A stretch of 64,000 nucleotides of DNA. It comes from a virus. Positions within the stretch are counted from its first letter, which is position 1. Each line of letters begins with the position of its first letter. Where the stretch lies: the IMG/VR virus record IMGVR_UViG_3300027708_000021. The stretch is one strand, 5' to 3'. The translations under genes were made by a program, and so were the position numbers. A model generated the notes under the pieces. That model made no database searches, had not been told where the DNA came from, and saw nothing but the letters and a program-made list of their open reading frames with translations. Shown here one piece after another: positions 3,001-40,447 of the stretch.

Positions 3001-6000
3001 AGTAAATCCAGTGCCGTTAGATCCTACATTAAGCACACCTATTAAATCAGTGTCGATCGGTGATCAGTTTGGTGTATATGTACAGACTAATGGCACATTA
3101 TGGTCTTGGGGCAATGTAAGTTTTGGTCAAGTGCCCGTAGGAATTCGATCAGTGCCAAGTGCGACTTATATGTCAGGCTGGACTAGAGTGGCTTCTGGGC
3201 CCAGCATCAGTTATCAAAGCATAGCTATACAAAGTCCAGGGACACTATGGTCGTGGGGAAATAATGCAAATGGAGCGTTGGGACTTAGTGACACATCAAC
3301 TCGATCAAGCCCAGTACAAGTGGGCACAACAAGTACTTGGACGCAAATTGCCTGCGGGTATAATTTTAGTACAGCCCTACAAAGCAATGGGTCATTATGG
3401 TCATGGGGTTATAATGCTCATGGAGAATTAGGCCTGAGCGACACAGCAAATCGTTCTAGCCCAGTACAAGTGGGGGCATTAACTAGTTGGACGCAGGTTG
3501 CCAACGGTTATATATATTCAGTAGCTTTACAAACTAATGGTACATTATGGTCATGGGGTTACAATGGTAATGGTCAATTAGGCACTAACAGTCTAACTAA
3601 TGTTTCTAGTCCAGTAGTAGTGGCCTCTAGTGCGTATACGGCTGTATGGGCTAGTACAAATGGTGGTGGTGGTGGTTCCAGTTTTACAGCAGCAATACAA
3701 AGCAATGGTACACTATGGACATGGGGGTCAAATGCTGTTGGTGGGCAATTAGGTCTCGGCGATACAAATAATAGAAGTATTCCAACACAAGTGGGTTTAT
3801 CGAGCACATGGACCCAAATTTCTAGTGGAAATTATTTCACTGTAGCCCTACAAACTCCTGGCACATTATGGGCATGGGGGAATAACAGTCAAGGGCAATT
3901 GGGTCTTAACACATTAACTAACTACTCTAGTCCCGTACAAATGGGTGCGGTAAACTATTGGACGCAAGTATCCTGTGGTTATCAGCATACTGTTGCTCTA
4001 CAAACTCCAGGAACATTATGGTCCTGGGGAAATAACAGTTTTGGTCAGTTAGGCCTCAGCGATACGGTAACTCGTTCTAGTCCAACGCAAGTAGGTGTAC
4101 TGAACTATTGGACACAAGTCTCAAATGGACATAATTTCACAGCAGCCATACTAAGCCCTGGCACATTATGGGCATGGGGCGGTAACGGGGATGGTCAATT
4201 GGGTCAAAGTAATACCACTGATCGATCAAGTCCAGTACAAGTAGGCGCACTGAGTATATGGACTCAGGTTGCCTCCGGAGTTAGATTCATGCTAGCATTA
4301 CAAAGCAACGGCACACTATGGGGTTGTGGATACAATTTTTTAGGTCAATTAGGAAATAATAGTACAACTAATCAATTAAGTCTAGTACAAGTGGGCTCGT
4401 TGAGTGTATGGACTAGAGTATCTGCTAGTACTTACCAGTCTATTGGATTACAAAGCAACGGCACACTATGGGCCTGGGGGTTTAATAGTAGTGGTCAATT
4501 GGGAGTCAGTAATACAACTAATAGATCCAGTCCAACACAAGTAGGCACTCTAAGCTCATGGACTCGAGTCTCTGCTTTAAACAGCTTTTCAAATGCTATA
4601 CAAAACGATGGTACATTATACATCTGGGGCACCAATGGCGGCAATGGACAATTAGGAAATAATAGTACAATTAATCAATCAAGTCCTATACAAGTGTCAT
4701 TAGTAGTTGGAGTACCTAGTACCGCATGGAATAAAATTTCCTGCGGATATGGTCAGACAGCAGCACTACAAAGCGATGGTACATTATGGGCTTGGGGTTA
4801 TAATAATTTTGGACAATTAGGAGTCGGTGATACCGTAAGTCGTTCTAGTCCAGGTCAAATAGGACAATCACCAGGTATTGGGCTATGGAACAAGATCAGT
4901 GGCGGCGGCGCATACTTTGCAGGAATTCAAAGCAACGGAACGCTATGGTCGTGGGGCAGTAATTTTTTGGGTGCGTTGGGACTTAATGACCAAAACAATC
5001 GGTCTAGTCCAGTGCAGATAGGCGCATTGAATATCTGGAGTCAAATCTTTTGCGGTCTAGACGCCAGTACACTAGCTATACAAAGCCCTGGTACATTATG
5101 GGCCTGGGGGCGCAATGATCTAGGCCAATTAGGTATTAGTACTATAACAAATCGTTCAAGTCCAACACAAGTAGGCGCAGTAAATTATTGGACAACTGCC
5201 GCTGTAGGAGCAGAGCATGCCTTAGCAATACAAAGCCCAGGTACACTATGGTCTTGGGGTTTTAATAATAATGGACAATTAGGTAATAATAGTAACTCTA
5301 ATAGAAGTAGCCCAGTACAAATTGGCCTATCAAGTACTTGGACTCGAGTGGCCTGCGGATCTTATTATACCGTAGCTATCCAAACACCAGGTACATTGTG
5401 GGCATGGGGAGATAATAGTTGGGGACAATTAGGCACCAGCAATCAATTTAATCGTTCTAGTCCAGTACAAATAGGCGCATTAAGTGTATGGACTCAAATT
5501 GCCTGCGGATACTCCAGCACAATAGCATTACAAAGCAACGGCACACTATGGACTTGGGGCAATAATAGTTATGGTCAACTAGGGCTCGGCGATCAAATAC
5601 ATCGATCTAGTCCAGTACAAGTGGGTCTATTAAGTCAATGGTCTCAGATCTCTTGCGGATATTATTTTAGTTCAGCTATACAAAATAATGGCACACTATG
5701 GTCATGGGGACTTAACAGTTATGGTCAACTAGGCCTAAGCGATGCAACAAATAGATCTAGCCCAGTTCAAATAGGCTCACTAAGTGTATGGGCTCAACTT
5801 GCACCCACTGGTGATTATAATATGGGGGCTATACAAAGTAATGGAACATTATGGACTTGGGGTAGAAATGACTCTGGTCAATTGGGTCAGAATAATATAG
5901 TTGCTGCTCAATCTAGTCCTGTACAATTAGGCGGTGGACCAACCTGGACTCAATTATCTGCTGGGTATTACTACACCGCAGCTATACAAACACCAGGTAC

Positions 6001-6736
6001 ACTATGGACTTGGGGTAATAATAGTTTTGGTCAACTGGGCAGTAGTAACACAACACATAGATCTAGTCCAGCACAAGTTGGTGCGTTGACCACATGGACA
6101 CAAGTTAGTTGTGGATACTATAGTACACTGGCAACACAAAGCAATGGCACACTATGGACTTGGGGTAATAACAGTTATGGTCAATTAGGTCAAAATGATA
6201 GTACTAACCGTTTTAGTCCAGTACAAGTAGGCACATTGAGTAATTGGTCTCAACTTAGTAACGGAGCCGCATTCTTAGCAGCCATACAAAGCAACGGAGT
6301 ATTATCACTATGGGGTAATAATAGTTATGGTCAACTAGGTTATGCTGCTGTGGTCGCTCCGCTTCAGGTGTCTACACAATCAATTTGGTCGCAAGTGGCT
6401 TGCGGTGTAAATCATGCCTTGGGTGTTCAAAGTAATGGCAGTCTTTGGGCATGGGGTAATAATAGTTTTGGCCAGTTGGGCACCAGCGATGTAACACATC
6501 GTAGTAGCATAACACAAGTAGGCACATTATCCAGCTGGAGTCGCGTGGCCTGCGGATTAGCGCACTCTGCGGCATTACAAAGTAATGGAACATTGTGGGC
6601 TTGGGGCAATAATAGTTGGGGTCAATTGGGACAAGGTAACATTACTAACACATCAAGTCCTGTACAAGTTGGCTCCTTGAGCAGATATGTATCAGTATAT
6701 GCTATGAATTATACTACCTTGGCAGAAACACAATGA
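2..6736 (+). CDS. Giant RCC1/BLIP-II repeat multi-beta-propeller protein (5'-partial; probable virion fibre/adhesin)
   Basis: The frame is open from nt 2 (LGLSDQTNRSSPVQVG...), so the ORF-track start at 167 is not the real start. About 43 repeats of W-x-Q-V-x-x-G...A-I-Q-S/T-N/P-G-T-L-W-x-W-G-x-N-x-x-G-Q-L-G...SSPVQVG. Confidence 0.9.
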   Translation, partial: LGLSDQTNRSSPVQVGVLSTWTSVGAGGYFTVATQTSGTLWAWGNNSFGQLGLNTLTNISSPVQLTPLALWSKIATSNGSTTSVIGIQSNGTLWAWGNNTLGQLGVNTTTTSYSSPVQVTTLNGWTQVASGLYFTAALQTPGTLYAWGSNSYGQLGINTAVAQTRSSPTLIGLPPTGLWSKVLASCGYSTASIQSDGTLWTWGNNPNGQLGLGDLTNRSIPIQVGTLNTWSQLAGGQFGFMLAIQTPGTLWSWGVNNFGQLGLNTSTNYSSPIQVGTLNYWTRVSSGYFHTAAILSPGTLWTWGFNAYGQNGLNTSTSYSSPVQVGALNYWTQVACGYNHTASIQSPGTLWTWGSNSYGQLGINTAIAQTRSSPVQVGTLSTWTQVACGYNYTAAIQSPGTLWMWGNNSFGQLGQSNTTNRSSPVQVGALSIWTNVSTATSSSNSFTAAIQTPGTLWTWGNNSFGQLGLNTSTLSNIFSPVQVGALSTWTQISAGVAYTAAILSNGILYEWGQNNAGQLGQNNTSNRSSPTQIGGPSWTQVACGYYHSTAIQSNGTLWSWGANSFGQLGLNTSILSNISSPVQVGALSVWTRVALGNYHTLGIQTPGTLYAWGLNSFGQLGTGNQTNLSSPLQVGALSIWTQIACGYSHTLAIQTPGTLWSWGNNSFGQLGLSDQTNRSSPVQLGSLSTWTQVSCGAYWSMALQNNGTLWSWGLNSFGQLGTSNQVNYSSPVQVGILSIWSQIGSQGNAAAVIQSNGTLWSWGSNSFGQLGLNTSTNWSSPVLINGISNWIQVTCGYSNTLALLSNGSLWAWGNNVQGQLGLNTSTNYSSPIQVGLLSLWSQVSSAGSSTTAIQTPGTLWSWGLNSYGALGLNTLTNYSSPVQIGNQSYWTQLAVNNFGSSAVSQGFMAAIQSPGTLWLWGNNSYNQLGYSPISYRSFATQIGTSGAWTGFPTGSQNSIWGAAINSNNNLYVWGVNSNRILNSNYYIYDTVDTIAQGSVIVNPVPLDPTLSTPIKSVSIGDQFGVYVQTNGTLWSWGNVSFGQVPVGIRSVPSATYMSGWTRVASGPSISYQSIAIQSPGTLWSWGNNANGALGLSDTSTRSSPVQVGTTSTWTQIACGYNFSTALQSNGSLWSWGYNAHGELGLSDTANRSSPVQVGALTSWTQVANGYIYSVALQTNGTLWSWGYNGNGQLGTNSLTNVSSPVVVASSAYTAVWASTNGGGGGSSFTAAIQSNGTLWTWGSNAVGGQLGLGDTNNRSIPTQVGLSSTWTQISSGNYFTVALQTPGTLWAWGNNSQGQLGLNTLTNYSSPVQMGAVNYWTQVSCGYQHTVALQTPGTLWSWGNNSFGQLGLSDTVTRSSPTQVGVLNYWTQVSNGHNFTAAILSPGTLWAWGGNGDGQLGQSNTTDRSSPVQVGALSIWTQVASGVRFMLALQSNGTLWGCGYNFLGQLGNNSTTNQLSLVQVGSLSVWTRVSASTYQSIGLQSNGTLWAWGFNSSGQLGVSNTTNRSSPTQVGTLSSWTRVSALNSFSNAIQNDGTLYIWGTNGGNGQLGNNSTINQSSPIQVSLVVGVPSTAWNKISCGYGQTAALQSDGTLWAWGYNNFGQLGVGDTVSRSSPGQIGQSPGIGLWNKISGGGAYFAGIQSNGTLWSWGSNFLGALGLNDQNNRSSPVQIGALNIWSQIFCGLDASTLAIQSPGTLWAWGRNDLGQLGISTITNRSSPTQVGAVNYWTTAAVGAEHALAIQSPGTLWSWGFNNNGQLGNNSNSNRSSPVQIGLSSTWTRVACGSYYTVAIQTPGTLWAWGDNSWGQLGTSNQFNRSSPVQIGALSVWTQIACGYSSTIALQSNGTLWTWGNNSYGQLGLGDQIHRSSPVQVGLLSQWSQISCGYYFSSAIQNNGTLWSWGLNSYGQLGLSDATNRSSPVQIGSLSVWAQLAPTGDYNMGAIQSNGTLWTWGRNDSGQLGQNNIVAAQSSPVQLGGGPTWTQLSAGYYYTAAIQTPGTLWTWGNNSFGQLGSSNTTHRSSPAQVGALTTWTQVSCGYYSTLATQSNGTLWTWGNNSYGQLGQNDSTNRFSPVQVGTLSNWSQLSNGAAFLAAIQSNGVLSLWGNNSYGQLGYAAVVAPLQVSTQSIWSQVACGVNHALGVQSNGSLWAWGNNSFGQLGTSDVTHRSSITQVGTLSSWSRVACGLAHSAALQSNGTLWAWGNNSWGQLGQGNITNTSSPVQVGSLSRYVSVYAMNYTTLAETQ

Positions 6737-7869
6737 CCTATAATATAAACAGTAGCCAAGTACTCAATAATAGATATTTTAGTAATTCTACATTTTCCGC
6801 AAACAATGCATTGTATGCCTGGGGTAATAACACTTTTGGTCAATTAGGCCTCAGCGATACAACTAACAGATCAAGTCCAGCGCAAGTTGGCACCTTGAAC
6901 TACTGGACCCAAGTATCCTGCGGATATAATTATTTCTCTCTAGCACTACAAAGTCCAGGAACATTATGGTCCTGGGGAAGCAATTCTTTTGGTCAGTTGG
7001 GTGTTAATACCGCGCCTACAAACAATACCTCTAGCCCAGTACGTGTAGGCTCACTAAGCAACTGGCTACAAATAGCAGCTGGTAACGCCCACTGGTTAGC
7101 TATCCAAAGCCCAGGCACATTATGGAGTTGTGGATATAATGGATACGGTCAGTTAGGTCTTAATACTTCAACAAATTATTCTAGTCCTGTACAGATTGGC
7201 GCTTTGAACACTTGGACACAAGTAGCAGCTGGTAATTACTCTAGTTATGCTATACAGAATACCGGAACACTATGGTCTTGGGGAGTTAATACCTATGGAC
7301 AGTTGGGTCAAATTAATACTACAAACTATTCTAGTCCAGTACAAGTAGGTACATTGAGCACTTGGACACAGATATCCGTGAATTCTACATCTGCTACTGC
7401 TCTAGCAATACAAAGCAATGGTACATTATGGTCGTGGGGCATCAATAATTATGGTCAAATAGGCAATAGCAATACTGTTAATCAATCTAGTCCAGCGCAG
7501 ATAGGCACTTTATCTCTTTGGACCAGAATCGCCAACGGTGGATATTCAAGCTATGCTATACAAAGCAATGGTACACTATGGGCATGGGGATTGAACAGCC
7601 AAGGTCAACTAGGTCTTAACACCACTGTAGGAGTATCTAGTCCGGTACAAGTGGGTACAGCTAGTACTTGGTCGCAGGTAGGCGCCGGCGCACTACAGTT
7701 GATAGCTATACAAAACAATGGCACGTTATGGATGTGTGGCTATAACGCCCAAGGTCAATTAGGAAACAATTCAACTACCAACATTTCTACACTCACCCAA
7801 GTAGGGTCACTAAATAAATGGAACTTTGCTACAGGTGCTTGGCAGATTTTGGCACAGCAAATTCCTTAA
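6733..7869 (+). CDS. Single 7-bladed RCC1-repeat protein, paralog of the upstream giant protein
   Basis: Same repeat consensus; ATGA overlap with the upstream stop. Confidence 0.9.
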   Translation: MTYNINSSQVLNNRYFSNSTFSANNALYAWGNNTFGQLGLSDTTNRSSPAQVGTLNYWTQVSCGYNYFSLALQSPGTLWSWGSNSFGQLGVNTAPTNNTSSPVRVGSLSNWLQIAAGNAHWLAIQSPGTLWSCGYNGYGQLGLNTSTNYSSPVQIGALNTWTQVAAGNYSSYAIQNTGTLWSWGVNTYGQLGQINTTNYSSPVQVGTLSTWTQISVNSTSATALAIQSNGTLWSWGINNYGQIGNSNTVNQSSPAQIGTLSLWTRIANGGYSSYAIQSNGTLWAWGLNSQGQLGLNTTVGVSSPVQVGTASTWSQVGAGALQLIAIQNNGTLWMCGYNAQGQLGNNSTTNISTLTQVGSLNKWNFATGAWQILAQQIP

Positions 7870-29473: not shown

Positions 29474-29905
29474 ATGGCTAACTTTCGCCAAGGCTTCTAT
29501 GAAGTAAAAAATTCTTCAAAATATGTTGGCAATGGTAAACCAAAGTTTCGCTCCGGCTGGGAGATGACTTTCATGATGTTTCTCGACTCTAACGATAACG
29601 TTATAAACTGGGCCAGCGAGCCTGTAAGAATTCCTTATCGCAATCCTCTGACTGGCAAAATGACTATGTATGTTCCAGATTTTATTGTAACTTACCGTGG
29701 TCCAAAAGAAACAGTAAGAGCTGAATTGATCGAGATTAAACCTAAAAAACAAAGTTTAATTGAAAGTAAGATGAAGGATCGGGACAAAGCTATAGTAGCT
29801 GTCAACTATGCTAAGTGGCATGCTGCTACACTATGGGCCAAGCAAAACGGGCTTACTTTTAGAGTTATTACAGAAGAAGATATCTTTAGGCAGGGTAAGA
29901 AGTAA
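29474..29905 (+). CDS. Head completion nuclease (T4 gp4 / TnsA-like)
   Basis: FRSGWE, WASEP..IPY, YVPDF, IEIKP, AKW.AA, FRVITE. Confidence 0.85.
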   Translation: MANFRQGFYEVKNSSKYVGNGKPKFRSGWEMTFMMFLDSNDNVINWASEPVRIPYRNPLTGKMTMYVPDFIVTYRGPKETVRAELIEIKPKKQSLIESKMKDRDKAIVAVNYAKWHAATLWAKQNGLTFRVITEEDIFRQGKK

Positions 29906-30438: not shown

Positions 30439-30463
30439 TATAAATATAATATAGGAAACAATC

Positions 30464-31072
30464 ATGAAAAATTTTAAAGATTACTTAGCAGAAAGCGAAA
30501 GAACCTACAACTATCGTATTAAAATAGTTGGTGATTTGCCCCAGGGATTTTACAATTCCCTCAAAGGTAAATTAGATCAGTTTGATCCCGTAAAGATTGG
30601 AGCCGAAAAAAGCACTCCGATCCAGGCCAAGCCAGCTGATTTTCCAGCATGTGAAAACGAAAAAGTTACTAGTATCGATGTAGAATTTCGTTACCCAGCT
30701 ATCGAGCCACAGATCAAACAAATCGCTCGTTTACTTGGCTTAGATGAAAATAAAATTATTATGCAAACATCTGTTTACGGAGATAACGAAGCTGATTATA
30801 AAGCAAAACTTGAAGCACAAGCTGATCCAGTTTTAACAGCACCATATCCAGCAGATGATGCCAAACAAAAAGAATTGATTAAAGATTATTCAGCTGATCC
30901 ATATGACCATGCTGTATTAAAAAATTCTTATCGCAGTAACTTTACCGTTGCCGGCGGCAGTCCAAAGCCTGCTGAAACAACAAATGATTTGCCCATGGGC
31001 GATGATAGTCCAATGACACACGCAGAGAAGCGTCCACGCAAGCCAGCAACTGGCGCACAACCAAGAGGATGA
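30464..31072 (+). CDS. Putative internal head protein
   Basis: N-terminus MKNFKDYLAE resembles the T4 capsid-targeting sequence; exact TATAAATA at 30439-30446. Confidence 0.55.
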   Translation: MKNFKDYLAESERTYNYRIKIVGDLPQGFYNSLKGKLDQFDPVKIGAEKSTPIQAKPADFPACENEKVTSIDVEFRYPAIEPQIKQIARLLGLDENKIIMQTSVYGDNEADYKAKLEAQADPVLTAPYPADDAKQKELIKDYSADPYDHAVLKNSYRSNFTVAGGSPKPAETTNDLPMGDDSPMTHAEKRPRKPATGAQPRG

Positions 31073-31076
31073 TAAG

Positions 31077-31628
31077 ATGAGCACAACCATATTTAGAAAA
31101 TATATTGATCTTATCAATGAGGTCCAACAACTTAATGAACTTAGCCCAGATTTATTGCGTAGAGCATCCGATGCCGCTGGTGCTAAAAGAACAAGTCTAG
31201 CTGGCCCAGAAAACAAAGCCGCTAGACAAAAAGCAAGTGGCCAAGAGGAAAAGTTTTATCAAGGTCAAATAGATAGATCTAATGCTAATCCCGCAGCAGG
31301 AACACAAGCAACAGCAAACGCTTACATTGAAAAATTAAAACAAAATGGGTGGAATCAGATTACTGATCCTCAACAGATAGCACAGGCAGCCGCACGTCTT
31401 GGCTGGGACAAATATAGCCAACCTCCGCAAGGAGTAACATGGTTTACTCACCCGCAAAACGGAGAGTCTGCATACATTGATCCTAAAAATGGTCAACTTG
31501 TTCGCTCTGGAAATGGGCAACAGCGAATAGGTCAGTCATTTGGGAATGCCAAAGCTATGCATCCACAAGCAAGTGATAGCGCAAAGTGGAATGCAAATAA
31601 CCCAAACCAAAATGTTTTTAAACCATAA
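31077..31628 (+). CDS. Putative internal head protein
   Basis: FRKYIDLINE..LNE|LSPDLL leader; module shared with 38144-40447. Confidence 0.5.
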   Translation: MSTTIFRKYIDLINEVQQLNELSPDLLRRASDAAGAKRTSLAGPENKAARQKASGQEEKFYQGQIDRSNANPAAGTQATANAYIEKLKQNGWNQITDPQQIAQAAARLGWDKYSQPPQGVTWFTHPQNGESAYIDPKNGQLVRSGNGQQRIGQSFGNAKAMHPQASDSAKWNANNPNQNVFKP

Positions 31629-31646
31629 TATTATATAGGATCTGAA

Positions 31647-34550
31647 ATGAACAATTTTTTTTACAACTTAAACAAAACACTGGCTAGCATTGGCAATGAA
31701 CAAGAACAAATTGCTAAGGAAGTAGCCAAGGCAGCTGAGAAGTCCCCAGTTCGTAAATCTCTCGAAGAGTCCTTACGCAGTGACATGAAGGCCCTAATGG
31801 AAGATGGCACAGGCGGAATGAACTTTAGTGGCTCAGGCTCATTAGAAGAAAAAGCTGGCTACTCTGCTAAAAAAGCAGCCGCTGGCAAAGACATCGGTAA
31901 GCCTGGCAAGAATTTTTCTAAGATTGCTAAAGATGCTGCTGAGCGTTACGGTAGTAAAGAGCGTGGCGAGAAAGTTGCTGGCGCAGTATTGAATAAATTA
32001 CGACACGCTAAGGAAGATGTTACCGACGAAGGCAATGAATTTTCAGGCGCACTAGCTAATGCTAAAAAAGATCACAAGAGTGAATTCAAAGTAGATGGTA
32101 AAACATATCCAGTACAAGAAGCCGATATGGAAGAAAGTGCTTTACAGGCCTATTTAGGTAACAAAAAATATGGCAAGCAAGGCATGGATGCTCTACGCAA
32201 AGCTGGTCGCGAGCACGCCGGTAAAGACAAAATGGATCAGATTCGCAATCGCTATGACAAGATGGACGAAACTGAAATGGAATGTGATACACCTACTCCA
32301 AGTAAAGGCATTCCAGGCAATGTTCCTGTTAAAGGAAAAATGGATCGCTTAAAAGGCAAGCGCGACTATTATGAAACTGAAGAAGCTGACGACAGCGATG
32401 AAGATATCATGGATTATCTAAATCGTAAATTAGCTCAACACGATAAAGAGCAAGCTAAGGAAGATGCTGTATCTAAACCATATAACGGTTCTAAAGGTGA
32501 TGCTGACGCATACAATGGTATGGAATTTGAAGGCGCTGCAATGCCACCGCCTGATGTTCCGCAGGCCGCAATTATAGCACCGTCACCAGATGCAAAATAT
32601 CAAGTACAAAAACCACAAGCTCCACAAGCAAAGACAGATATGTCTAAAATTCCTAATGACATACTACAAAAAGCAGTTGACGGTGGATACCCTGACGCAA
32701 ATCCAGCATTAATTGCGGCGGCTAAAGCAGAACTAGCAAACAGAATGAGCGGCGCAAGCAGTTACAATCCAACTGTACATAATCCTACAGTTAAAGAAGT
32801 AAGCAAGAACGGTCCGCATGGCAAACCAGGTTGGTTAATTGACGCACAGAAAAAAGCAGAAGGCGAAATTGATGAGACAATGACCCGTCAACATTTCCAA
32901 CACACAGCAGATTTGTTAAAGCATATCGAAGATCCAGCCAAGCGCATGGAACTTGCTAAACACCACGCAGGTATTTTTAAATCATCTAATCCACGATTCA
33001 ATCATGAAAAATTCATGAAGGCTTGTAATTGCGACGAAGGCATTGCTGGTCAAGCAGCTGGCACAATCGCTGGAGGGGCAATTGGCGGACCAATTGGTGC
33101 TGCTATTGGCGGCGCTATTGGTAATAATCTAACAAACGAAGAAGACTTTGAAGAAGGAATGCTTGGCTCAGTAGCTGGTGCTATTGGCGGTCCACTAGTT
33201 GGAGCGGCAACCAATGCCATTACTGATGAAGGCTATGCTGAGATGGATGCTTGGTTAAAGCAACGTGAAAAAGAAAAAGGTACTGGTAAGTTTGACAAAC
33301 GCAAAGTAAGTACAGGTACTGTATATACACGCAGATTTGCTGACGAGCCAGAAGATGACACAGATGCGCCAATTAGTAAAGGTGGCAATCCTGCTGTTAA
33401 GCGTGGGCGCGGCCGTCCAGCGGGCACCAAAGGTGCTACTGGCTCACGAGGACCTACAGGCAAGAGTAAATTAATGTCTAAAGATGCTATCGGAGAAGAA
33501 AATGTTGATGAAGTTTGTCATCATTGTGGCCAGGCAATTCAAGAAAAAGCAGTTAGCAAAAAGCAACAACGTTTTATGGGCATGGTTCACGCCGCACAAA
33601 AAGGTGAAAAGCCAGCTAGTAAAGAAGTAGCTAAGACTGCTAAAGGCATGAAGAAAACAGATGCTGAGGATTTTGCTAGCACTAAGCACAAAGGTTTGCC
33701 AGAAAAAGTTAAATCTAAAAAAACTGAAGAAGGCAAAGGCGACGGTAATCTAGCTAATAACGCTAAACCATACGACAAAGTTACACGCGGTGATGTTATT
33801 GCTGGTCGGTTAGGTAAAGACGAAGAAGGCGGCAAGAAGAAAGTTAAAAAAGAAGAAAAAGTTGATGAAACAACAACTTCTGGTAGTGTAGCAACTGCTT
33901 CTGGAGCTCCTAAGTCTAGCAAAGGCGGCATGAAATTTGGTGGCGGCATTTATGATTCATGGAATCGCCAATATGAAACTTTATTAGCAGAAAGTGTTAA
34001 TGTTAATACAACAACAACTAAAAATGAAGAAAATCCAGACCAAGACCACGAAAGCATTACAATCACAGTAGACGGTGATGATGTTAGTCGTTTTAAACAG
34101 TTATTACAGTCTATGGGTATAACACAAAATCATAACCACGGTCGCGAAACACATTCAACAGAGCCATGCGGTTCTTGCGGTGGTATCCCTTGCCAATGTG
34201 AAGAATTAGCCGACGAAGGTGTTTTAGGTACTCTTGGCGGCGCAGCAATTGGTGGAGCATTAGGCGGACCTGTTGGTGCTGCTGTTGGTGCTGTCGGCGG
34301 ACAAGAATTAACTAAAGGTGGTTCTGGAATCATCGAAGCCGATGCTCCAGTTTCACAAAATGAGCCAGACTATCCTAGTAATCAAGAAGAAACAGATAAC
34401 GCACTACAGTACAGTGGTGGGTTGAATCGTAAAAAATCAACCGGGCAAACTACTATTCCGGTGGTTGCTAGTCAAGAAGATCGTCTACACTCCATGGAAG
34501 AGTCAGTTGATTCATTCTTAAGTCTATACAAAGCATTTAAAACAAAATAA
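31647..34550 (+). CDS. Modular low-complexity head polyprotein (glycine-zipper, AT-hook and DUF3008-like modules)
   Basis: Short modules delimited by hydrophobic-x-E sites; KRGRGRP; KAVSKKQQRFMG...FASTKHKGLPEKV. Confidence 0.6.
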   Translation: MNNFFYNLNKTLASIGNEQEQIAKEVAKAAEKSPVRKSLEESLRSDMKALMEDGTGGMNFSGSGSLEEKAGYSAKKAAAGKDIGKPGKNFSKIAKDAAERYGSKERGEKVAGAVLNKLRHAKEDVTDEGNEFSGALANAKKDHKSEFKVDGKTYPVQEADMEESALQAYLGNKKYGKQGMDALRKAGREHAGKDKMDQIRNRYDKMDETEMECDTPTPSKGIPGNVPVKGKMDRLKGKRDYYETEEADDSDEDIMDYLNRKLAQHDKEQAKEDAVSKPYNGSKGDADAYNGMEFEGAAMPPPDVPQAAIIAPSPDAKYQVQKPQAPQAKTDMSKIPNDILQKAVDGGYPDANPALIAAAKAELANRMSGASSYNPTVHNPTVKEVSKNGPHGKPGWLIDAQKKAEGEIDETMTRQHFQHTADLLKHIEDPAKRMELAKHHAGIFKSSNPRFNHEKFMKACNCDEGIAGQAAGTIAGGAIGGPIGAAIGGAIGNNLTNEEDFEEGMLGSVAGAIGGPLVGAATNAITDEGYAEMDAWLKQREKEKGTGKFDKRKVSTGTVYTRRFADEPEDDTDAPISKGGNPAVKRGRGRPAGTKGATGSRGPTGKSKLMSKDAIGEENVDEVCHHCGQAIQEKAVSKKQQRFMGMVHAAQKGEKPASKEVAKTAKGMKKTDAEDFASTKHKGLPEKVKSKKTEEGKGDGNLANNAKPYDKVTRGDVIAGRLGKDEEGGKKKVKKEEKVDETTTSGSVATASGAPKSSKGGMKFGGGIYDSWNRQYETLLAESVNVNTTTTKNEENPDQDHESITITVDGDDVSRFKQLLQSMGITQNHNHGRETHSTEPCGSCGGIPCQCEELADEGVLGTLGGAAIGGALGGPVGAAVGAVGGQELTKGGSGIIEADAPVSQNEPDYPSNQEETDNALQYSGGLNRKKSTGQTTIPVVASQEDRLHSMEESVDSFLSLYKAFKTK

Positions 34551-34563
34551 GGAATTAAAGTAA

Positions 34564-35061
34564 ATGAGTCAAGCCAACGTCACAGCCGGAGCATTTAGTA
34601 ATGCCACTTGGTACACAGATAAAGCAGAAATTGCAACAGGAACTAATTCTGTTACATATAATGTTTATGCTGTAGCACTTACGCCGTACACATACACCAC
34701 TGAAATTACTACAACTAATACTAGTGCAGTAGTAACAACAGCTGGAACAATCTCAGTTCCGGTAGGCGCTGGCATTACTGGCACAGGTATTCCTGGTGGT
34801 GCCACTGTAACAGCATACAGTCCCGGAGTAAGTATTACTTTAAGTGCTAATGCTACTGCCAATGGAACAGTAACAGCAACCGTTACTCCGGCACCAGTGG
34901 GTAACTTATATTCAGCTAATCCAATAATCCCTGCTAATAGTCGCGAACAAATTTATGTCGGTGCTGGCAACAAACTTACTATCATTGGTGGTAATTCAAC
35001 AGCACAAGAAATTGGCACCGCAAGTTCAGCACTATACGGAGTTAACGCTCTTAATCCTTAA
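34564..35061 (+). CDS. Beta-rich virion structural protein
   Basis: T/A/G-rich sequence; AAGGA RBS; located in the late operon. Confidence 0.55.
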   Translation: MSQANVTAGAFSNATWYTDKAEIATGTNSVTYNVYAVALTPYTYTTEITTTNTSAVVTTAGTISVPVGAGITGTGIPGGATVTAYSPGVSITLSANATANGTVTATVTPAPVGNLYSANPIIPANSREQIYVGAGNKLTIIGGNSTAQEIGTASSALYGVNALNP

Positions 35062-35063
35062 TT

Positions 35064-35438
35064 ATGAGAGCTAACGAGTTTATTTCTGAAAGCTATAAAG
35101 GGCACGGCAAACTTCATCCAGAGCAACAAGCTACCATGCCTCGCGCTCATAGATTTGCTGGTACCGCAGACCGCGTTTATGATTTAAATCGCGCTATGAT
35201 GGCTGTGGCTTGCTCCGATGGAAAATCATTTCCACATCACGGATCTGATGCAGAAAGTTGGGTTGGGCGAAATAATCTGGCTAATCCTTTTACCGATGAA
35301 GAACATAAAATGCTACATCATGCTTACGATGCTATTGGTATTGAAATTAATGATGCTGTAAGTCATCCTAATACAGAGCCAGACAATGTACATAAACACA
35401 GTCCAATGACCGGATTTAAAGGCTATAAAAGAAAATGA
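35064..35438 (+). CDS. Putative internal head protein (paralog A)
   Basis: MRANEFISE leader; C-terminal SPMTGFKGY. Confidence 0.55.
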   Translation: MRANEFISESYKGHGKLHPEQQATMPRAHRFAGTADRVYDLNRAMMAVACSDGKSFPHHGSDAESWVGRNNLANPFTDEEHKMLHHAYDAIGIEINDAVSHPNTEPDNVHKHSPMTGFKGYKRK

Positions 35439-35821
35439 GAGCTCGTGAGTTTATCACTGAAGAACGAGTATTGCCGCCTGAGCAAGCAGATCCAATGCGT
35501 CAGACTTTTATACTTCCTGGATTAACTTCCAGTGATCCATATCTAACTTATAGATTTGGCGTGGCCATGGCCCGTGCTAGAAGCGATGCTGTTAAAGATG
35601 ACGTTAATCCTTACATATTACCGTGGGATGCAGAAGAAGTGTTTGGCGAATATGCCGTAGTAGCCGGCATAAACGGTACTGTAGATCCAATTATTGACAA
35701 GGCATTAGCAATGACCGGTATTGGTGGCGGCAAAAAAGCCATTGGATCGTTAACGAGCCAAGAGCCACCGTCGGTAGATAAAACAAGTCCAGTAAAAGCA
35801 TTCAAAGGCTACCCAAGATGA
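35435..35821 (+). CDS. Putative internal head protein (paralog B)
   Basis: MRAREFITE leader; C-terminal SPVKAFKGY. Confidence 0.55.
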   Translation: MRAREFITEERVLPPEQADPMRQTFILPGLTSSDPYLTYRFGVAMARARSDAVKDDVNPYILPWDAEEVFGEYAVVAGINGTVDPIIDKALAMTGIGGGKKAIGSLTSQEPPSVDKTSPVKAFKGYPR

Positions 35822-36519
35822 AAAAATTATTAGTAGTATTGTTATTTGTACCCTTAGCTGCTCTAGCACAAATAGCGAAAGAGTGCCCACAGTTTACGGT
35901 CAATGGTACTCCTTTATATCCAGCCAAGTTAGGCGATCAGGAAATTTGTCATACCAACTATGCTGTTATACACAAGTGCGATGTCAAAGGTCCTATAGCT
36001 GTATTTGAACACTTAACTAAAGATAAAATTACTGGCGGATTTAAACGTCAAGATGACTTTAGACCTGACCCAAGAGTGTTTCCACAATGCCAGTCTACCC
36101 TCAAAGACTATGCTGGACAACCATATGACCGAGGACATATGAGTCCTGCTGGTAACAATACACAGAGTAAAGAAATAATGAGTGAAAGTTTTTTCTTGAG
36201 TAACATGGTGCCACAAGTTCCTAATAACAATCGCGGCATCTGGAAACAATTAGAAACTTGGGAACGAGATTGGGCACTAGACGGAGGTGATTTTTATATT
36301 ATCTCTGGTCCTGTTTTTATGCCCCATTATAAAGTAATTGGCAATGGCGTAGGTGTTCCTGATGGTTTATACAAGATTATCATCGAGCGTACATCGGGCA
36401 AAGTTATGGCCTACATGATGCCTAATGCTCCACTTCCTGTAGCAGATTTACCTAAATATCAAACAACTATGACGGCGGTTGAACAAGCAACTGGCATACA
36501 GTTTAATCTAGGCAAATAA
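35818..36519 (+). CDS. Exported sugar-non-specific endonuclease (NucA/EndA family)
   Basis: Signal peptide MKKLLVVLLFVPLAALA; YDRGHM; SFFLSNMVPQ; NRGIWKQLE. Confidence 0.9.
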   Translation: MKKLLVVLLFVPLAALAQIAKECPQFTVNGTPLYPAKLGDQEICHTNYAVIHKCDVKGPIAVFEHLTKDKITGGFKRQDDFRPDPRVFPQCQSTLKDYAGQPYDRGHMSPAGNNTQSKEIMSESFFLSNMVPQVPNNNRGIWKQLETWERDWALDGGDFYIISGPVFMPHYKVIGNGVGVPDGLYKIIIERTSGKVMAYMMPNAPLPVADLPKYQTTMTAVEQATGIQFNLGK

Positions 36520-36555: not shown

Positions 36556-38118
36556 ATGGCCTTTGACCAAAGCTCGCTAGCTAAAACTCCCTATAAAAAA
36601 CAAGTTTGGACTGAACAACAGCTCAAAGAATTTGCTCTTTGTGCTGATCCAGTAACCGGCCCTGCGTACTTTATGGATAACTTTTTCTATATCCAGCATC
36701 CGGTTAGAGGAAAAATGCAGTATCATCCATACGAATATCAAGAACGATTAATTACTACGTATCACAATTATCGTTTTAGTATTTCCATGATGCCACGACA
36801 AACTGGTAAGTCGACCAGTGCCGCGGGATACTTGCTATGGTATGCTATGTTTGTACCAGACTCCACAGTTCTTATTGCCGCACACAAGTATGACGGTTCT
36901 CAAGAGATTATGACTCGTGTGCGTTATGCTTATGAAATGTGTCCTGATCATATTCGTGCTGGGGCAACAAATTATAACAAAGGTTCAATAGAATTTGAAA
37001 ACGGCTCACGCATTATGTCAGCCACAACCACAGAAAACACGGGTCGTGGTATGAGTATATCACTACTATATTGCGATGAGTTCGCCTTCGTTCGTCCCTC
37101 TGTGGCACAGGAATTCTGGACTTCTATCTCCCCAACACTAGCAACTGGTGGTAAATGTATTATCACTTCTACCCCTAACTCAGACGAAGATCAGTTTGCG
37201 TTATTGTGGAAAGGTGCGAATAAAATGGAAGATTCACACGGTAATCCGCAAGAAGTAGGTATTAATGGTTTCCGTGCTTTTCGTAGTTTTTGGCGGGAAC
37301 ATCCCGACCGCGATGAAGCCTGGGCTGCGGCACAACGAGCACAATTAGGTGAAGATCGATTCCGTCGTGAGATGGATTGTGAATTTATTATTAATGATGA
37401 GACGCTGATCGCGCCGGCTAAACTCATAGACTTAGAAGGTATTGAGCCAGTATACAGAACAGCTCAGGTACGCTGGTACAAACAACCTGAACCTGGTAAG
37501 ATGTATTGTGTTGGGTTAGATCCTAGTTTAGGAACAGGCGGCGACCCAAGTGCTATACAAATTTTTGAAGCCAATACTACTGAACAAATAGGAGAGTGGA
37601 AACACAATCGTACCCCTATTCCTGAGCAAATCCGCATACTGGCCGACATTGTAAAATACATTTATAGTTTTGTTAAAGATGAACAGTCAATTTACTTCTC
37701 TGTTGAGAATAATACCATTGGAGAAGCTGCTCTTATCTCTATAGAACAATTTGGTGAAGAGAATATCAAGGGCTATTTCCTGTCGGACCCTACTCGAGGA
37801 GCCGGCCGATATCGGAAAGGTTTCAATACTAGCCCTAAAAATAAACTCACAGCTTGTGCTAAAATGAAAACCCTAATCGAAACAGGTAAGATGAAATTGC
37901 GTAGCCGTCCGCTGATCTCTGAATTAAAAACCTTTGTAGCCAACGGAGTTAGTTACGCAGCAAAACCAGGTAGTACAGATGACTTAGTCATGGCGGCTTT
38001 GCTAGTTACCCGTATGATGATACTGTTACAAACATATCACCCAGAAATGGACACGCAAATGCGAGATTTTGGGGAAAGTATCACTCCGCCGTTGCCCTTT
38101 ATTTCAACAATGTATTAA
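36556..38118 (+). CDS. gp17: Terminase large subunit (T4 gp17-like)
   Basis: PRQTGKST, LLYCDEFAF, ITSTPN, GLDPSLG, VENN, DDLVMA; TAAATA at 36545-36550. Confidence 0.95.
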   Translation: MAFDQSSLAKTPYKKQVWTEQQLKEFALCADPVTGPAYFMDNFFYIQHPVRGKMQYHPYEYQERLITTYHNYRFSISMMPRQTGKSTSAAGYLLWYAMFVPDSTVLIAAHKYDGSQEIMTRVRYAYEMCPDHIRAGATNYNKGSIEFENGSRIMSATTTENTGRGMSISLLYCDEFAFVRPSVAQEFWTSISPTLATGGKCIITSTPNSDEDQFALLWKGANKMEDSHGNPQEVGINGFRAFRSFWREHPDRDEAWAAAQRAQLGEDRFRREMDCEFIINDETLIAPAKLIDLEGIEPVYRTAQVRWYKQPEPGKMYCVGLDPSLGTGGDPSAIQIFEANTTEQIGEWKHNRTPIPEQIRILADIVKYIYSFVKDEQSIYFSVENNTIGEAALISIEQFGEENIKGYFLSDPTRGAGRYRKGFNTSPKNKLTACAKMKTLIETGKMKLRSRPLISELKTFVANGVSYAAKPGSTDDLVMAALLVTRMMILLQTYHPEMDTQMRDFGESITPPLPFISTMY

Positions 38119-38143: not shown

Positions 38144-40447
38144 ATGTCACAAAACAACGCTAACCAGAAGCTAAATGACTTGCTTATCAGCAAGAATTTC
38201 GACCCGCAGTCATTAAATAATCAGGGCAAACCAGCCTCCTCTCCCGAAGAAGCAGATTTATTTTCTTTTGATTACAAAGGTGAATCAGGACAAGACTACG
38301 GCACCGTAGTCATCATGCTCAATGATGAAAATGACTTGAATGTTTACTTTGGCGATAATATTGGTAAAAGCATGGAAGGCAATGATAAAAAGGGATGGTT
38401 TGATTTCCTATATCAGCTCCGTATGTTTGCCAAGAGAAATTTATTCAGTTTTACATTACAAAATTTAAACAAATTAAAATATAGTATGCAGGGTCAAGCG
38501 GCAATTAGTGAAGGATTGTTTGAATCATGGCAGGGTAAAAAAGATTTATCTTGGAATGCCGATGCTACACAAGCTCGACTAATGATTAAACACAAACGCA
38601 ATATAGGCGAAGGCGAAGCTCGTTTTCGTAATATACAATCGTTGTTTATTGAAACAGCTGACGGCGAAAGATTTAAATTGCCATTTACAAAATTATCTGC
38701 TGGCCGTGCTATGTTGGAACATGTACGACAAGGCGGTAAACCTTATGACATTCGGGGTAATCATATTGTCACTATTCTTGAAGAAATGAATTTGTTGAGT
38801 CGTTTCCGCCGCGCTAATCAAGGTAAAATCTTTGAAGGTGAAACACAACAATTAGTAGAACAAGCTACACATTATTACGAAACATTACAAAGTAATTTAA
38901 AGAGTTTAGGTACAAAAGTTGGATACACAAAATATTTTGAATCGTGGGATCCAGCGGCATTAACTGATGAAGATGTCATCATTGAAGATTTGCGTCATAT
39001 GTTTGTAGAACAAAACATTGATTCAAGAATTGAACAAGCATTACCGTTATTGGCAAAATTACAACAGGAATACAACATGAAAGAAGCTAACATATTTGAA
39101 AATTGGACAAACCTTATTCTCGAAGGTACATGGGCGATTCCCGATACTAAAGAAAAACAAACAGCTTTAGTAACATTGCTCAGTCAAGAATTGCCAGTTG
39201 GTGCCGATGCTACTAACGCAACAGAATTGTTATATGATTTGCTGGGCGATGATGAATTGTTTGACCGTTTAGAAGAATTAGCCGAGCAAGACGCCAATGC
39301 TGATGCTCGCGAAATTATTCTTAATCGTTTAGAAGAATTAAAAGATAATCCAGATATTGCACAAGTTATTGGCCACTTAAAGACTCCAACACCAGATAGT
39401 CAAGAACCAGTTGACGAATCTTTTGAAGATGATGCTAGTCCAGTAGAGTCCGCTATTATTAATCGTATTATGATGGATCATCCACTTTTATTAGCTAAAT
39501 TCGGTCCAGAAGCTGTTATGACTGCCGCTAGAGACCAAGCTGAATGGGTTGGTGATGTTGATGAAATCGGCAGTAGTGATGTAAGCGGTTGGATTAAAAA
39601 TGTTGTTAGAGATTTGGCAAGTACTACTCAAGAATTAGACGAACTAAGTCCAGATACATTAAAGAGCTATGTTAAGAAAGCAAGTTCAGATCGTGCCATG
39701 CGTAACTTTGACCAAGGTGTAGACATGGGCGTTTCATATGGCGCCCGCGAACCAAAATTTGATAAAGAAAATGATCATAAAGACACATTACGCCGTCGAG
39801 GCATTCACAAAGCTGTAGATCGTTTAGAAGAAGGCGACATGAAAGACTGGTTATGGAACGAAGCCGAACGCTTAGACAAAGATGCTTTTATTAGTAATGC
39901 CGACGAATACGGTATGACCCCAGAAGAAGCCGCCGAGTGGTGGGATAGTATCAATGGAGAAATTGAAGAAGGCATCACCGGTGCCTTAGCTGGCGGCGCT
40001 TTGGGTGGCTACGCAACTAAATCAGTTAAAGGAACAATGCTTGGAGCTAAATTAGGTAGTAAAGCACAAGATTATTTTACCAAAAAAGATAAAAAAATAG
40101 ACGAAACTGATCACAGTAGTATCGTTGACCAGATGACTAAAACACAAGCCGAAATTGAAAAAATTGTTCGTTCGGGTGGTCGTGTAGCAATGAATGATCC
40201 GTTAACTAGAAAGTTAAAAATGCTCAAAAACAAATTACATAAATCTAAAGAAGTTAATGAAAACACAGCGTTAACTGGCCCATATGGGCATTCCGGTAAA
40301 CTAGCACCAGTGGAAGGCACTGACGAAGATATGATGGCTAGAATCAAATTCTTAGCCGGCATTAGAGAAAATGATACTACTACAGATGGGCAGGAAGATT
40401 CAAATTTAACCGCTATGAAATCTGTCAGTTCTATTTTCATTAGATAA
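38144..40447 (+). CDS. Virion protein: globular N-terminal region plus C-terminal modular polyprotein region
   Basis: Late TAAATA at 38131-38136; C-half is split by LDE/LEE/IEE/IDE/VNE sites; MARIKFLAGI. Confidence 0.55.
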   Translation: MSQNNANQKLNDLLISKNFDPQSLNNQGKPASSPEEADLFSFDYKGESGQDYGTVVIMLNDENDLNVYFGDNIGKSMEGNDKKGWFDFLYQLRMFAKRNLFSFTLQNLNKLKYSMQGQAAISEGLFESWQGKKDLSWNADATQARLMIKHKRNIGEGEARFRNIQSLFIETADGERFKLPFTKLSAGRAMLEHVRQGGKPYDIRGNHIVTILEEMNLLSRFRRANQGKIFEGETQQLVEQATHYYETLQSNLKSLGTKVGYTKYFESWDPAALTDEDVIIEDLRHMFVEQNIDSRIEQALPLLAKLQQEYNMKEANIFENWTNLILEGTWAIPDTKEKQTALVTLLSQELPVGADATNATELLYDLLGDDELFDRLEELAEQDANADAREIILNRLEELKDNPDIAQVIGHLKTPTPDSQEPVDESFEDDASPVESAIINRIMMDHPLLLAKFGPEAVMTAARDQAEWVGDVDEIGSSDVSGWIKNVVRDLASTTQELDELSPDTLKSYVKKASSDRAMRNFDQGVDMGVSYGAREPKFDKENDHKDTLRRRGIHKAVDRLEEGDMKDWLWNEAERLDKDAFISNADEYGMTPEEAAEWWDSINGEIEEGITGALAGGALGGYATKSVKGTMLGAKLGSKAQDYFTKKDKKIDETDHSSIVDQMTKTQAEIEKIVRSGGRVAMNDPLTRKLKMLKNKLHKSKEVNENTALTGPYGHSGKLAPVEGTDEDMMARIKFLAGIRENDTTTDGQEDSNLTAMKSVSSIFIR

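Follow-up and report, generated by a model that had tools for sequence, protein, structure and literature searches.

The 64,000-nucleotide (nt) stretch of viral DNA analysed here (the window; IMG/VR virus record IMGVR_UViG_3300027708_000021) contains, at 31647-34550 on the plus strand, an uninterrupted open reading frame (ORF; P0001) with a product of 967 amino acids (aa). On balance, this gene probably encodes a head-internal cargo polyprotein that is loaded by its leader, cut by a protease of the S77 family at 15-20 glutamate junctions and reshaped in evolution by cassettes that share a uniform junction. An initial annotation, made from the letters of the window, had read it as a string of peptide modules separated by prohead-protease-type sites. 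Cassette turnover, the junction motif, an S77 protease in the lineage and neighbouring leaders that resemble the T4 capsid-targeting sequence (CTS) give this reading partial, indirect support; cleavage and delivery are its presumptive part.

Modular architecture of the predicted polyprotein

Gly, Lys, Ala, Glu and Asp are abundant in the polyprotein. An AlphaFold2 model built on a 30-sequence alignment has a mean pLDDT of 49, with 616 of the 967 residues (64%) below 50, and this background is interrupted by confident islands at aa 88-119, 130-158, 164-205, 331-369 and 410-459 and by islands of moderate confidence at aa 638-677 and 783-822. Several island edges fall within two residues of Glu sites (128, 158, 163, 208, 410 and 464). 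As modelled, the protein appears to be organized as beads on a string, with small modules joined by low-confidence linkers; its original division into about 20 segments is borne out by the islands and by edges that coincide with the sites then listed.

The modules, all on the plus strand, begin with a conserved N-terminal leader (aa 1-25; 31647-31721) in which F5, Y6, L8 and N9 are invariant and which ends in IAKE. A basic K/G/A-rich module (aa 69-128; 31851-32030; net charge +6) contains the helical hairpin at aa 88-119 and ends in TDE↓G, the arrow marking the predicted cut. It is followed by a portable 30-aa 'GNEF' module (aa 129-158; 32031-32120), modelled as a helix plus beta-hairpin at pLDDT 83-89 and ending in VQE↓A, and by a helical basic module (aa 164-208; 32136-32270) flanked by MEE↓S and MDE↓T. 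A His-rich module (aa 411-464; 32877-33038), with six His and two Cys residues, is modelled as helical at pLDDT ~90 and lies between IDE↓T and CDE↓G.

Three Gly zippers, uncharged stretches rich in GxxxG, occupy aa 465-497, 504-523 and 858-886. The first two belong to adjacent modules (aa 465-503 and 504-528; 33039-33230), each beginning after x-[DE]-E, and the third belongs to a module (aa 858-897; 34218-34337) that begins after ADE↓G. Against Pfam, the zippers missed the cut-offs of PF20721 (23 bits; cut-off 30) and PF13441 (15.3 bits; cut-off 28.9); a precomputed PF13488 match is present in some homologues. Within the module spanning aa 529-622, the peptide KRGRGRP (aa 585-591; 33399-33419) has the R-G-R-P core and flanking basic residues of an AT-hook, with G589, R590 and P591 invariant in 30 homologues. 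It qualifies as an AT-hook by sequence and is a putative DNA-binding element.

A basic DUF3008-like module (aa 634-695; 33546-33731; net +9) begins after IQE↓K. Its segment aa 634-688 aligns with the full Pfam profile PF11450 (positions 1-57; E 3.4e-4) at 21.2 bits, under the gathering cut-off of 24 bits, and it matches five PHROG families, the best at E 3e-21. The PHROG score, tblastn matches in cyanophages and precomputed PF11450 matches in many homologues show the similarity to be genuine despite the sub-threshold Pfam score. The most conserved junction, VDE↓T, precedes the module at aa 742-782 (33870-33992), and its V739 and E741 are invariant in the 30 homologues. A modelled beta-beta-alpha mini-domain and a CxxC...CxC cluster occupy aa 783-857 (33993-34217). 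The Cys clusters lie at aa 460-462, 624-627 and 841-851. The C-terminal region (aa 898-967; 34338-34547), 70 residues long, combines strong conservation with low pLDDT. The AT-hook, the DUF3008-like segment, the three Gly zippers, the Cys clusters and the His-rich helix were thus all found where the initial annotation had placed them.

A glutamate-specific junction motif

A strict junction motif, [VILMFTCA]-[DEQ]-E↓[GSTAV], was written from the sites of the initial annotation and from the alignment. It occurs 15 times in the polyprotein against 2.13 +/- 1.41 times in 5000 shuffles, none of which reached 15, an enrichment that is partly circular in that the motif was defined after this protein had been seen; the family-wide and indel tests are less circular than this within-protein one. 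The motif density is 1.55 per 100 aa in the polyprotein and 0.08 over the remaining 54 window ORFs taken together, and the version with Asp in place of Glu occurs twice. Nearly all of the 15 strict and six further hydrophobic-x-E sites lie within, or at the edge of, low-pLDDT linkers; on the model, the polyprotein has the hydrophobic-x-Glu motif in predicted accessible segments that characterizes S77 substrates. The original list of Glu sites stands as regards the enrichment of its junction motif. It was loose in admitting any x-x-E, it included the poorly conserved VKE384 and IIE897, and it overlooked the near-invariant TDE528↓G.

Across 176 distinct homologues, the strict motif is 3.9-fold more frequent than in shuffles, and 167 of them exceed a 2-fold excess. 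Its family-wide density is 0.94 per 100 aa with Glu and 0.11 with Asp; in 18 distant members, the corresponding values are 0.72 observed, 0.20 shuffled and 0.04 for the Asp control. Conservation points in the same direction. Site Glu columns hold 88.5% Glu and 2.1% Asp, compared with 62% Glu and 10.8% Asp in other Glu columns, so that the change from Glu to Asp is five times rarer at the sites. All 120 aligned rows have Glu at positions 741 and 782, as do 69 of the 70 occupied rows at position 410. Since Asp ought to be acceptable in a passive acidic linker or helix cap, its scarcity at the junctions argues for sites of a Glu-specific protease. Among the 429 ORFs of a complete relative of 344 kb (G002), the ortholog of the polyprotein, encoded at L090 15349-17406, ranks first by motif count, and the acidic core protein encoded beside the protease is near the top.

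Homologue family and cassette turnover

More than 1400 proteins of 578-1226 aa match the polyprotein at the family threshold of E <= 1e-3, and all are metagenomic. The N-terminal ~300 and the C-terminal ~440 residues are common to most of them and the middle varies. In alignments, entire modules are present or absent among otherwise collinear homologues, and lengths run from 779 to 1059 aa among homologues more than 70% identical. LysM (PF01476) is carried by some. A search for shorter homologues returned chiefly partial gene calls and no free-standing module beyond DUF3008. On one 48-kb metagenome contig, a single family member is split into two ORFs (P0185 and P0203) by a frameshift inside DUF3008, not at a junction; the break may be genuine or may come from an error in sequencing.

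The relation of indels to the junctions was measured in 4000 random pairwise global alignments among the 176 homologues, which yielded 979 distinct indels, well flanked and 12 or more residues long; these are pairwise counts, in which events are not independent of shared ancestry. At the left boundary, 23% of indels have a strict site no more than two residues away, against 5% under random placement (4.6-fold); the share is 14% against 5% near the right boundary (2.7-fold) and 6.1% against 0.3% near both (~20-fold). Glu frequency peaks at 23-24% at the boundaries over a background of 9%, and the Asp and Lys controls show no enrichment. The effects are consistent in direction and large in size.

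Individual modules behave accordingly. The 30-aa GNxF module is present in 0-3 copies per homologue behind differing upstream sequences, and Glu precedes 98% of its 173 copies; Gly zippers, at 0-4 per protein, are present in only 44 of the 176, and Glu, mostly within x-D-E, comes before 72 of the 76 copies. The proposal that modules are gained and lost as cassettes is well supported by these portable modules starting after Glu and by the strict sites at indel boundaries. The initial annotation had made the relation of ortholog indels to Glu sites a test on which its idea could fail; the indels do track the Glu sites, and the idea survived.

Protease, capsid context and leader sequences

The gp21 protease of T4 cuts after L/I-x-E (PMC9026906), and cleavage by the phiKZ and SPN3US proteases follows S/A-x-E and A-x-E, each propeptide offering several sites (PMC9026906, PMC10052503). 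In the lineage of the window, Peptidase_S77 (the T4 gp21 family) scores above the Pfam cut-off in Pseudomonas phage PA5oct (85 bits) and, among five large relatives with a polyprotein gene, in four (80-87 bits), and PHROG calls the S77 protein of the relatives a head maturation protease (E 5e-57). The gene order in G002 is portal, hyperacidic core protein, protease, scaffold candidate and major capsid protein, with the protease gene at L089 9212-9862. The capsid proteins of the relatives have, in their N-terminal region, an L-K-E junction with a stretch rich in Ser, Gly, Thr and Ala behind it; this presumed maturation site resembles the V-D-E plus T-T-T-S-G-S junction of the polyprotein family, as a likeness only.

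Four neighbouring ORFs, all on the plus strand, begin with leader-like sequences. The gene at 30464-31072, a homologue of PA5oct gp282 (E 3.5e-13), starts with the T4 CTS-like MKNFKDYLAE, which shares four identical and four similar residues of ten with the T4 sequence and ends in L-A-E. The ORF at 31077-31628 has a looser version, ending in ...LINE. Two small paralogous ORFs (35064-35438 and 35435-35821; together 35064-35821), conserved in G002, have leaders ending in E-F-I-S-E and E-F-I-T-E. Across the window, the leader pattern has five matches, namely these four neighbours and one that is likely false. The two leader-bearing neighbours retained by G002 (a 202-aa gene and the MRA-type ORFs) keep their leaders at the same places. 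The polyprotein has a leader of its own, of ~25 residues, which ends in [IL]-[ATS]-E in most homologues. In T4, internal proteins carry a ten-residue CTS that is removed, and a single cut is made in each (PMC8442874).

G002 has a second group of leader-tagged ORFs, at 278846-286758, and two of them start with M-R-x-x-[DE]-F-[IV]-T-E. This locus adjoins two motif-rich ORFs, one of 206 aa with five sites and one of 833 aa with four, and is a probable second cargo block.

Proposed mechanism and competing explanations

In the mechanism that we propose, the conserved N-terminal leader would take the polyprotein into the prohead core. Once the shell closes, a gp21-type serine protease (Peptidase S77) would cut after Glu at ~15-20 junctions of the form [V/I/L/M/F/T/C/A]-[D/E/Q]-E followed by a small residue, situated in disordered linkers, and peptides and mini-domains of ~5-140 residues would be released. 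Basic pieces, namely the K-rich module, the AT-hook piece and the DUF3008 module, would remain with the DNA; Gly-zipper and other pieces would exit with it at infection. The uniform junction would let modules insert, vanish, duplicate or swap without disturbing the rest, and such turnover would explain the range of lengths in the family. We infer the head location, cleavage, retention and ejection, as well as the function of every peptide. The roles first suggested for the peptides (DNA-condensing, membrane-active or anti-defence) are speculation from composition.

Several points weigh against this mechanism. The S77 protease gene lies neither in the 64-kb window nor in the closest related contig, which is a fragment rated 43% complete, and one relative rated 99% complete yielded no S77 match. 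The polyprotein's leader is longer than the T4 CTS and unlike it, ending here in I-A-K-E rather than [IL]-x-E, and the P3 position is broader than the L/I of T4, with T, C, F and A also occurring. A logo anchored on the Glu at indel boundaries is only mildly enriched, at 1.5-2.1-fold (L/V/T at P3, D at P2 and G/A at P1'), the indel counts carry the dependence noted above, and acidic linkers ahead of helix starts could explain part of the pattern. The family has no member among cultured phages, either by megablast of 31000-36000 or by tblastn of the whole protein. The link to PA5oct gp281, which occupies the polyprotein's position, is positional only, and the short motifs that the two share may be due to chance.

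An alternative that takes up some of these points is a disordered multi-module virion protein that is uncleaved or only trimmed of its leader and acts as one long tether, internal or ejection protein, the x-D/E-E sequences being flexible linkers and helix starts. We consider it unlikely. It agrees with the 64% of residues below pLDDT 50, with the E-rich linkers common in disordered proteins, with the single cut of T4 internal proteins (PMC8442874) and with the weak boundary-anchored logo. A passive linker, however, would not be expected to hold Glu at 0.94 and Asp at 0.11 per 100 aa or to replace Glu by Asp five times more rarely at its sites than elsewhere. The preferences for hydrophobic or beta-branched residues at P3 and small residues at P1', the conservation of junctions within otherwise variable linkers (as at E741 and E782) and the presence of the same junction before non-homologous modules all favour cleavage over a single intact chain.

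Cleavage at the same Glu sites is shared by another explanation, in which the protein would be a sacrificial, scaffold-like core component whose fragments are mostly expelled and whose modules serve head assembly or charge balance rather than the next host. This outcome, to which we also give a low probability, has its model in T4 gp22, gp67 and gp68, which are cut into several fragments, most of which leave the head (PMC9026906). It is in keeping with the net charge of -11 of the whole polyprotein and the acidity of several predicted fragments, with a conserved, low-pLDDT C-terminus that would suit a partner-binding segment, and with the hyperacidic positional counterpart gp281 in PA5oct. Yet G002 already has a scaffold candidate as well as an acidic core protein beside its protease, and many modules of the polyprotein are conserved mini-folds. 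The variation of Gly zippers, GNxF modules and Cys clusters among close relatives would be odd for a scaffold that determines size. Basic pieces such as the AT-hook and the DUF3008 module (+9) should bind DNA, and the DUF3008 protein of cyanophage S-SCSM1 carries a virion-protein annotation.

That the gene encodes a tail tape-measure or tail-lumen protein is very improbable: it lies downstream of sheath, tube and tube-like genes, such proteins are long and sometimes have Gly-rich hydrophobic segments and LysM or lysozyme domains (LysM PF01476 being present in some homologues), and PHROG named no tape measure among the G002 ORFs scanned, where the baseplate region gave hub and wedge proteins, but the model shows short islands in disorder rather than a long helical rod, a range of 779-1059 aa at more than 70% identity would alter tail length, and the gene sits in a leader-tagged block near the terminase, just as cyanophage DUF3008 strings sit between terminase genes, so that the idea is weakened, by arguments of structure and length only.

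An extension of the cargo polyprotein reading is offered tentatively, as plug-and-play peptide delivery. The leader and tail would frame exchangeable cassettes, and ~20 peptides would travel into the cell with the injected genome and take effect in the opening minutes of infection; with the same reserve, these might include DNA-binding and metal-binding peptides and membrane-inserting Gly zippers. If this were so, capsid cargo could be read from sequence, and new injected effectors would evolve by cassette exchange.

Relation to known head-internal proteins

That head-internal proteins are loaded and then processed specifically at Glu is textbook knowledge for T4 and has been well studied in giant phages of the phiKZ type. 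The T4 proteins IPI, IPII, IPIII and Alt are small and basic, are loaded into the core through an N-terminal leader ending in I-A-E, are cut by the S77 protease after Glu, are kept with the DNA and are ejected. The leaders of the polyprotein's neighbours are very similar to theirs, and the leader of most homologues ends in [IL]-x-E. The T4 proteins are encoded by separate genes and receive one cut, whereas the window phage has ~20 modules in one ORF with a junction before each. T4 gp22, gp67 and gp68 offer a second likeness in being cut by gp21 at several L/I-x-E sites (PMC9026906); they are helical, acidic scaffolds, whereas the polyprotein is pieced together from unrelated and often basic mini-domains, shows cassette turnover and has no sequence similarity to them.

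The inner-body and ejection proteins of phiKZ, 201phi2-1 and SPN3US are abundant head proteins of giant phages that are delivered to the host, and they are processed after Glu at a short motif with redundant sites per propeptide. Cleavage of the phiKZ type frees one mature protein from an N-terminal propeptide, whereas the sites of the polyprotein span its whole length between modules. The lineage also differs, the window phage being PA5oct-related with T4-type replication genes, and no homology of the polyprotein to these proteins was found.

PA5oct (Wroclawvirus) resembles the window in gene order, with gp282 as the homologue of the gene at 30464 and gp281 in the place of the polyprotein. 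Both gp282 and gp281 are encoded directly upstream of the terminase and are annotated as virion proteins detected by ESI-MS/MS. The gp281 protein, hyperacidic and 498 aa long, has only short look-alike motifs in common with the polyprotein; hhalign comparisons of the family and of its C-terminal 80 residues with gp281 were not significant, and gp281 is treated as a positional counterpart. In the Rak2-like phage GAP32, no comparable gene was found upstream of the terminase.

Megablast of 31000-36000 against cultured phages matched nothing, and in tblastn of the whole polyprotein the DUF3008 segment alone matched, in cyanophages, with 156 records. In S-SCSM1, whose virion proteome was determined by mass spectrometry on CsCl-purified particles, the DUF3008 module stands alone as a protein of 69 aa with the annotation 'virion protein', and in S-PM2 it is preceded by an L-H-E junction. 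In S-IOM18, S-CAM22, P-RSM6 and S-SZBM1, DUF3008 opens long K/R-rich proteins after the small terminase gene (S-SZBM1, L101 3129-5876; S-IOM18, L100 1959-3818), and in S-SZBM1 the block of string proteins extends to the large terminase. S-SZBM1 gp082 has an internal heptad resembling the T4 CTS. S-SZBM1 gp084 has a CTS-like leader and a C-terminal module that recurs at the C-terminus of S-IOM18 SWYG_00078, there after a Glu-Gly junction; because of this sharing, leader-tagged small proteins and fused strings have modules in common in T4-like phages.

The cyanophage strings (S-IOM18 SWYG_00078, S-SZBM1 gp082, and S-SCSM1 gp279 and gp280, the latter two annotated as virion proteins) share with the polyprotein the DUF3008 module, a location between small and large terminase genes and leader-tagged neighbours. 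They differ in that the DUF3008 segment alone can be aligned, strict motifs are few (2-3) and they have not been described as polyproteins. The locus ties to a more widespread arrangement, in which T4-like cyanophages and PA5oct-like phages keep a block of cargo genes between their small and large terminase genes.

No description was found, in the literature searched, of one gene in which ~20 unrelated mini-modules each stand behind the same protease junction and turn over as cassettes, and this architecture seems to be new. Should the polyprotein be cleaved as proposed, it would provide a sequence rule for predicting the packaged and injected cargo of uncultured giant phages, a natural scaffold for packing foreign peptides, and a set of small injected peptides (Gly zippers, AT-hook, DUF3008) with possible roles early in infection. 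Were it to remain uncut, it would still be an unusual and very widespread disordered virion protein.

Host phage and gene neighbourhood

The gene order of the window runs from tail sheath (1212 aa), tube, tube-like protein, a TnsA-like ORF and the PA5oct gp283 homologue through two small leader-bearing ORFs, the polyprotein, a Thr/Ala-rich ORF, two small paralogues and a non-specific nuclease to the large terminase, a 767-aa virion-protein homologue, gp32, UvsX, UvsY, helicases and primase. The large terminase (36556-38118, plus strand) marks the downstream end of the cargo block; by this gene, PA5oct is the closest cultured phage (52% identity), with the same order of sheath, tube, tube-like ... 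gp282, gp281 and large terminase. The most similar IMG/VR contig is 152 kb long and rated 43% complete. Since the other relatives carrying the gene are 343-349 kb, one with terminal repeats, the phage of the window can be taken as a jumbo of ~350 kb, most likely a myovirus with T4-type replication and head genes.

Downstream of the terminase, the gene for the 767-aa virion-protein homologue (38144-40447, plus strand) has four strict motifs and an embedded Gly zipper between IEE↓G and IDE↓T. The same type of cassette seems to have been inserted into this second virion protein.

Directly after the polyprotein gene, the 165-aa ORF at 34564-35061 encodes an almost uncharged protein rich in Thr, Ala, Gly and Val. 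It is kept at the same place in G002, and an ORF of similar composition follows the small terminase gene of S-IOM18. Within the cargo block, just upstream of the terminase, 35818-36519 encodes a DNA/RNA non-specific endonuclease (PF01223, 151 bits) with a hydrophobic, signal-peptide-like N-terminus. The ORF at 29474-29905 has the PHROG label 'head closure', yet it matches the Pfam TnsA-like endonuclease N-terminal domain at 76.9 bits, and the PHROG name is probably misleading.

The T4 late-promoter consensus TATAAATA occurs once in the window, at 30439-30446, where shuffles predict 8.9 occurrences; the site lies 18 nt upstream of the first leader-tagged gene (30464). With a single occurrence, the T4 late promoter was dropped as an argument about expression.

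At the start of the window, the 5'-open ORF at 2-6736 (at least 2244 aa) and the ORF at 6733-7869 (378 aa) encode RCC1-like repeats rich in W, G, S, T and N. Both are nearly free of charge (Glu 0.2%, Lys 0.2%) and are probably fibre proteins.

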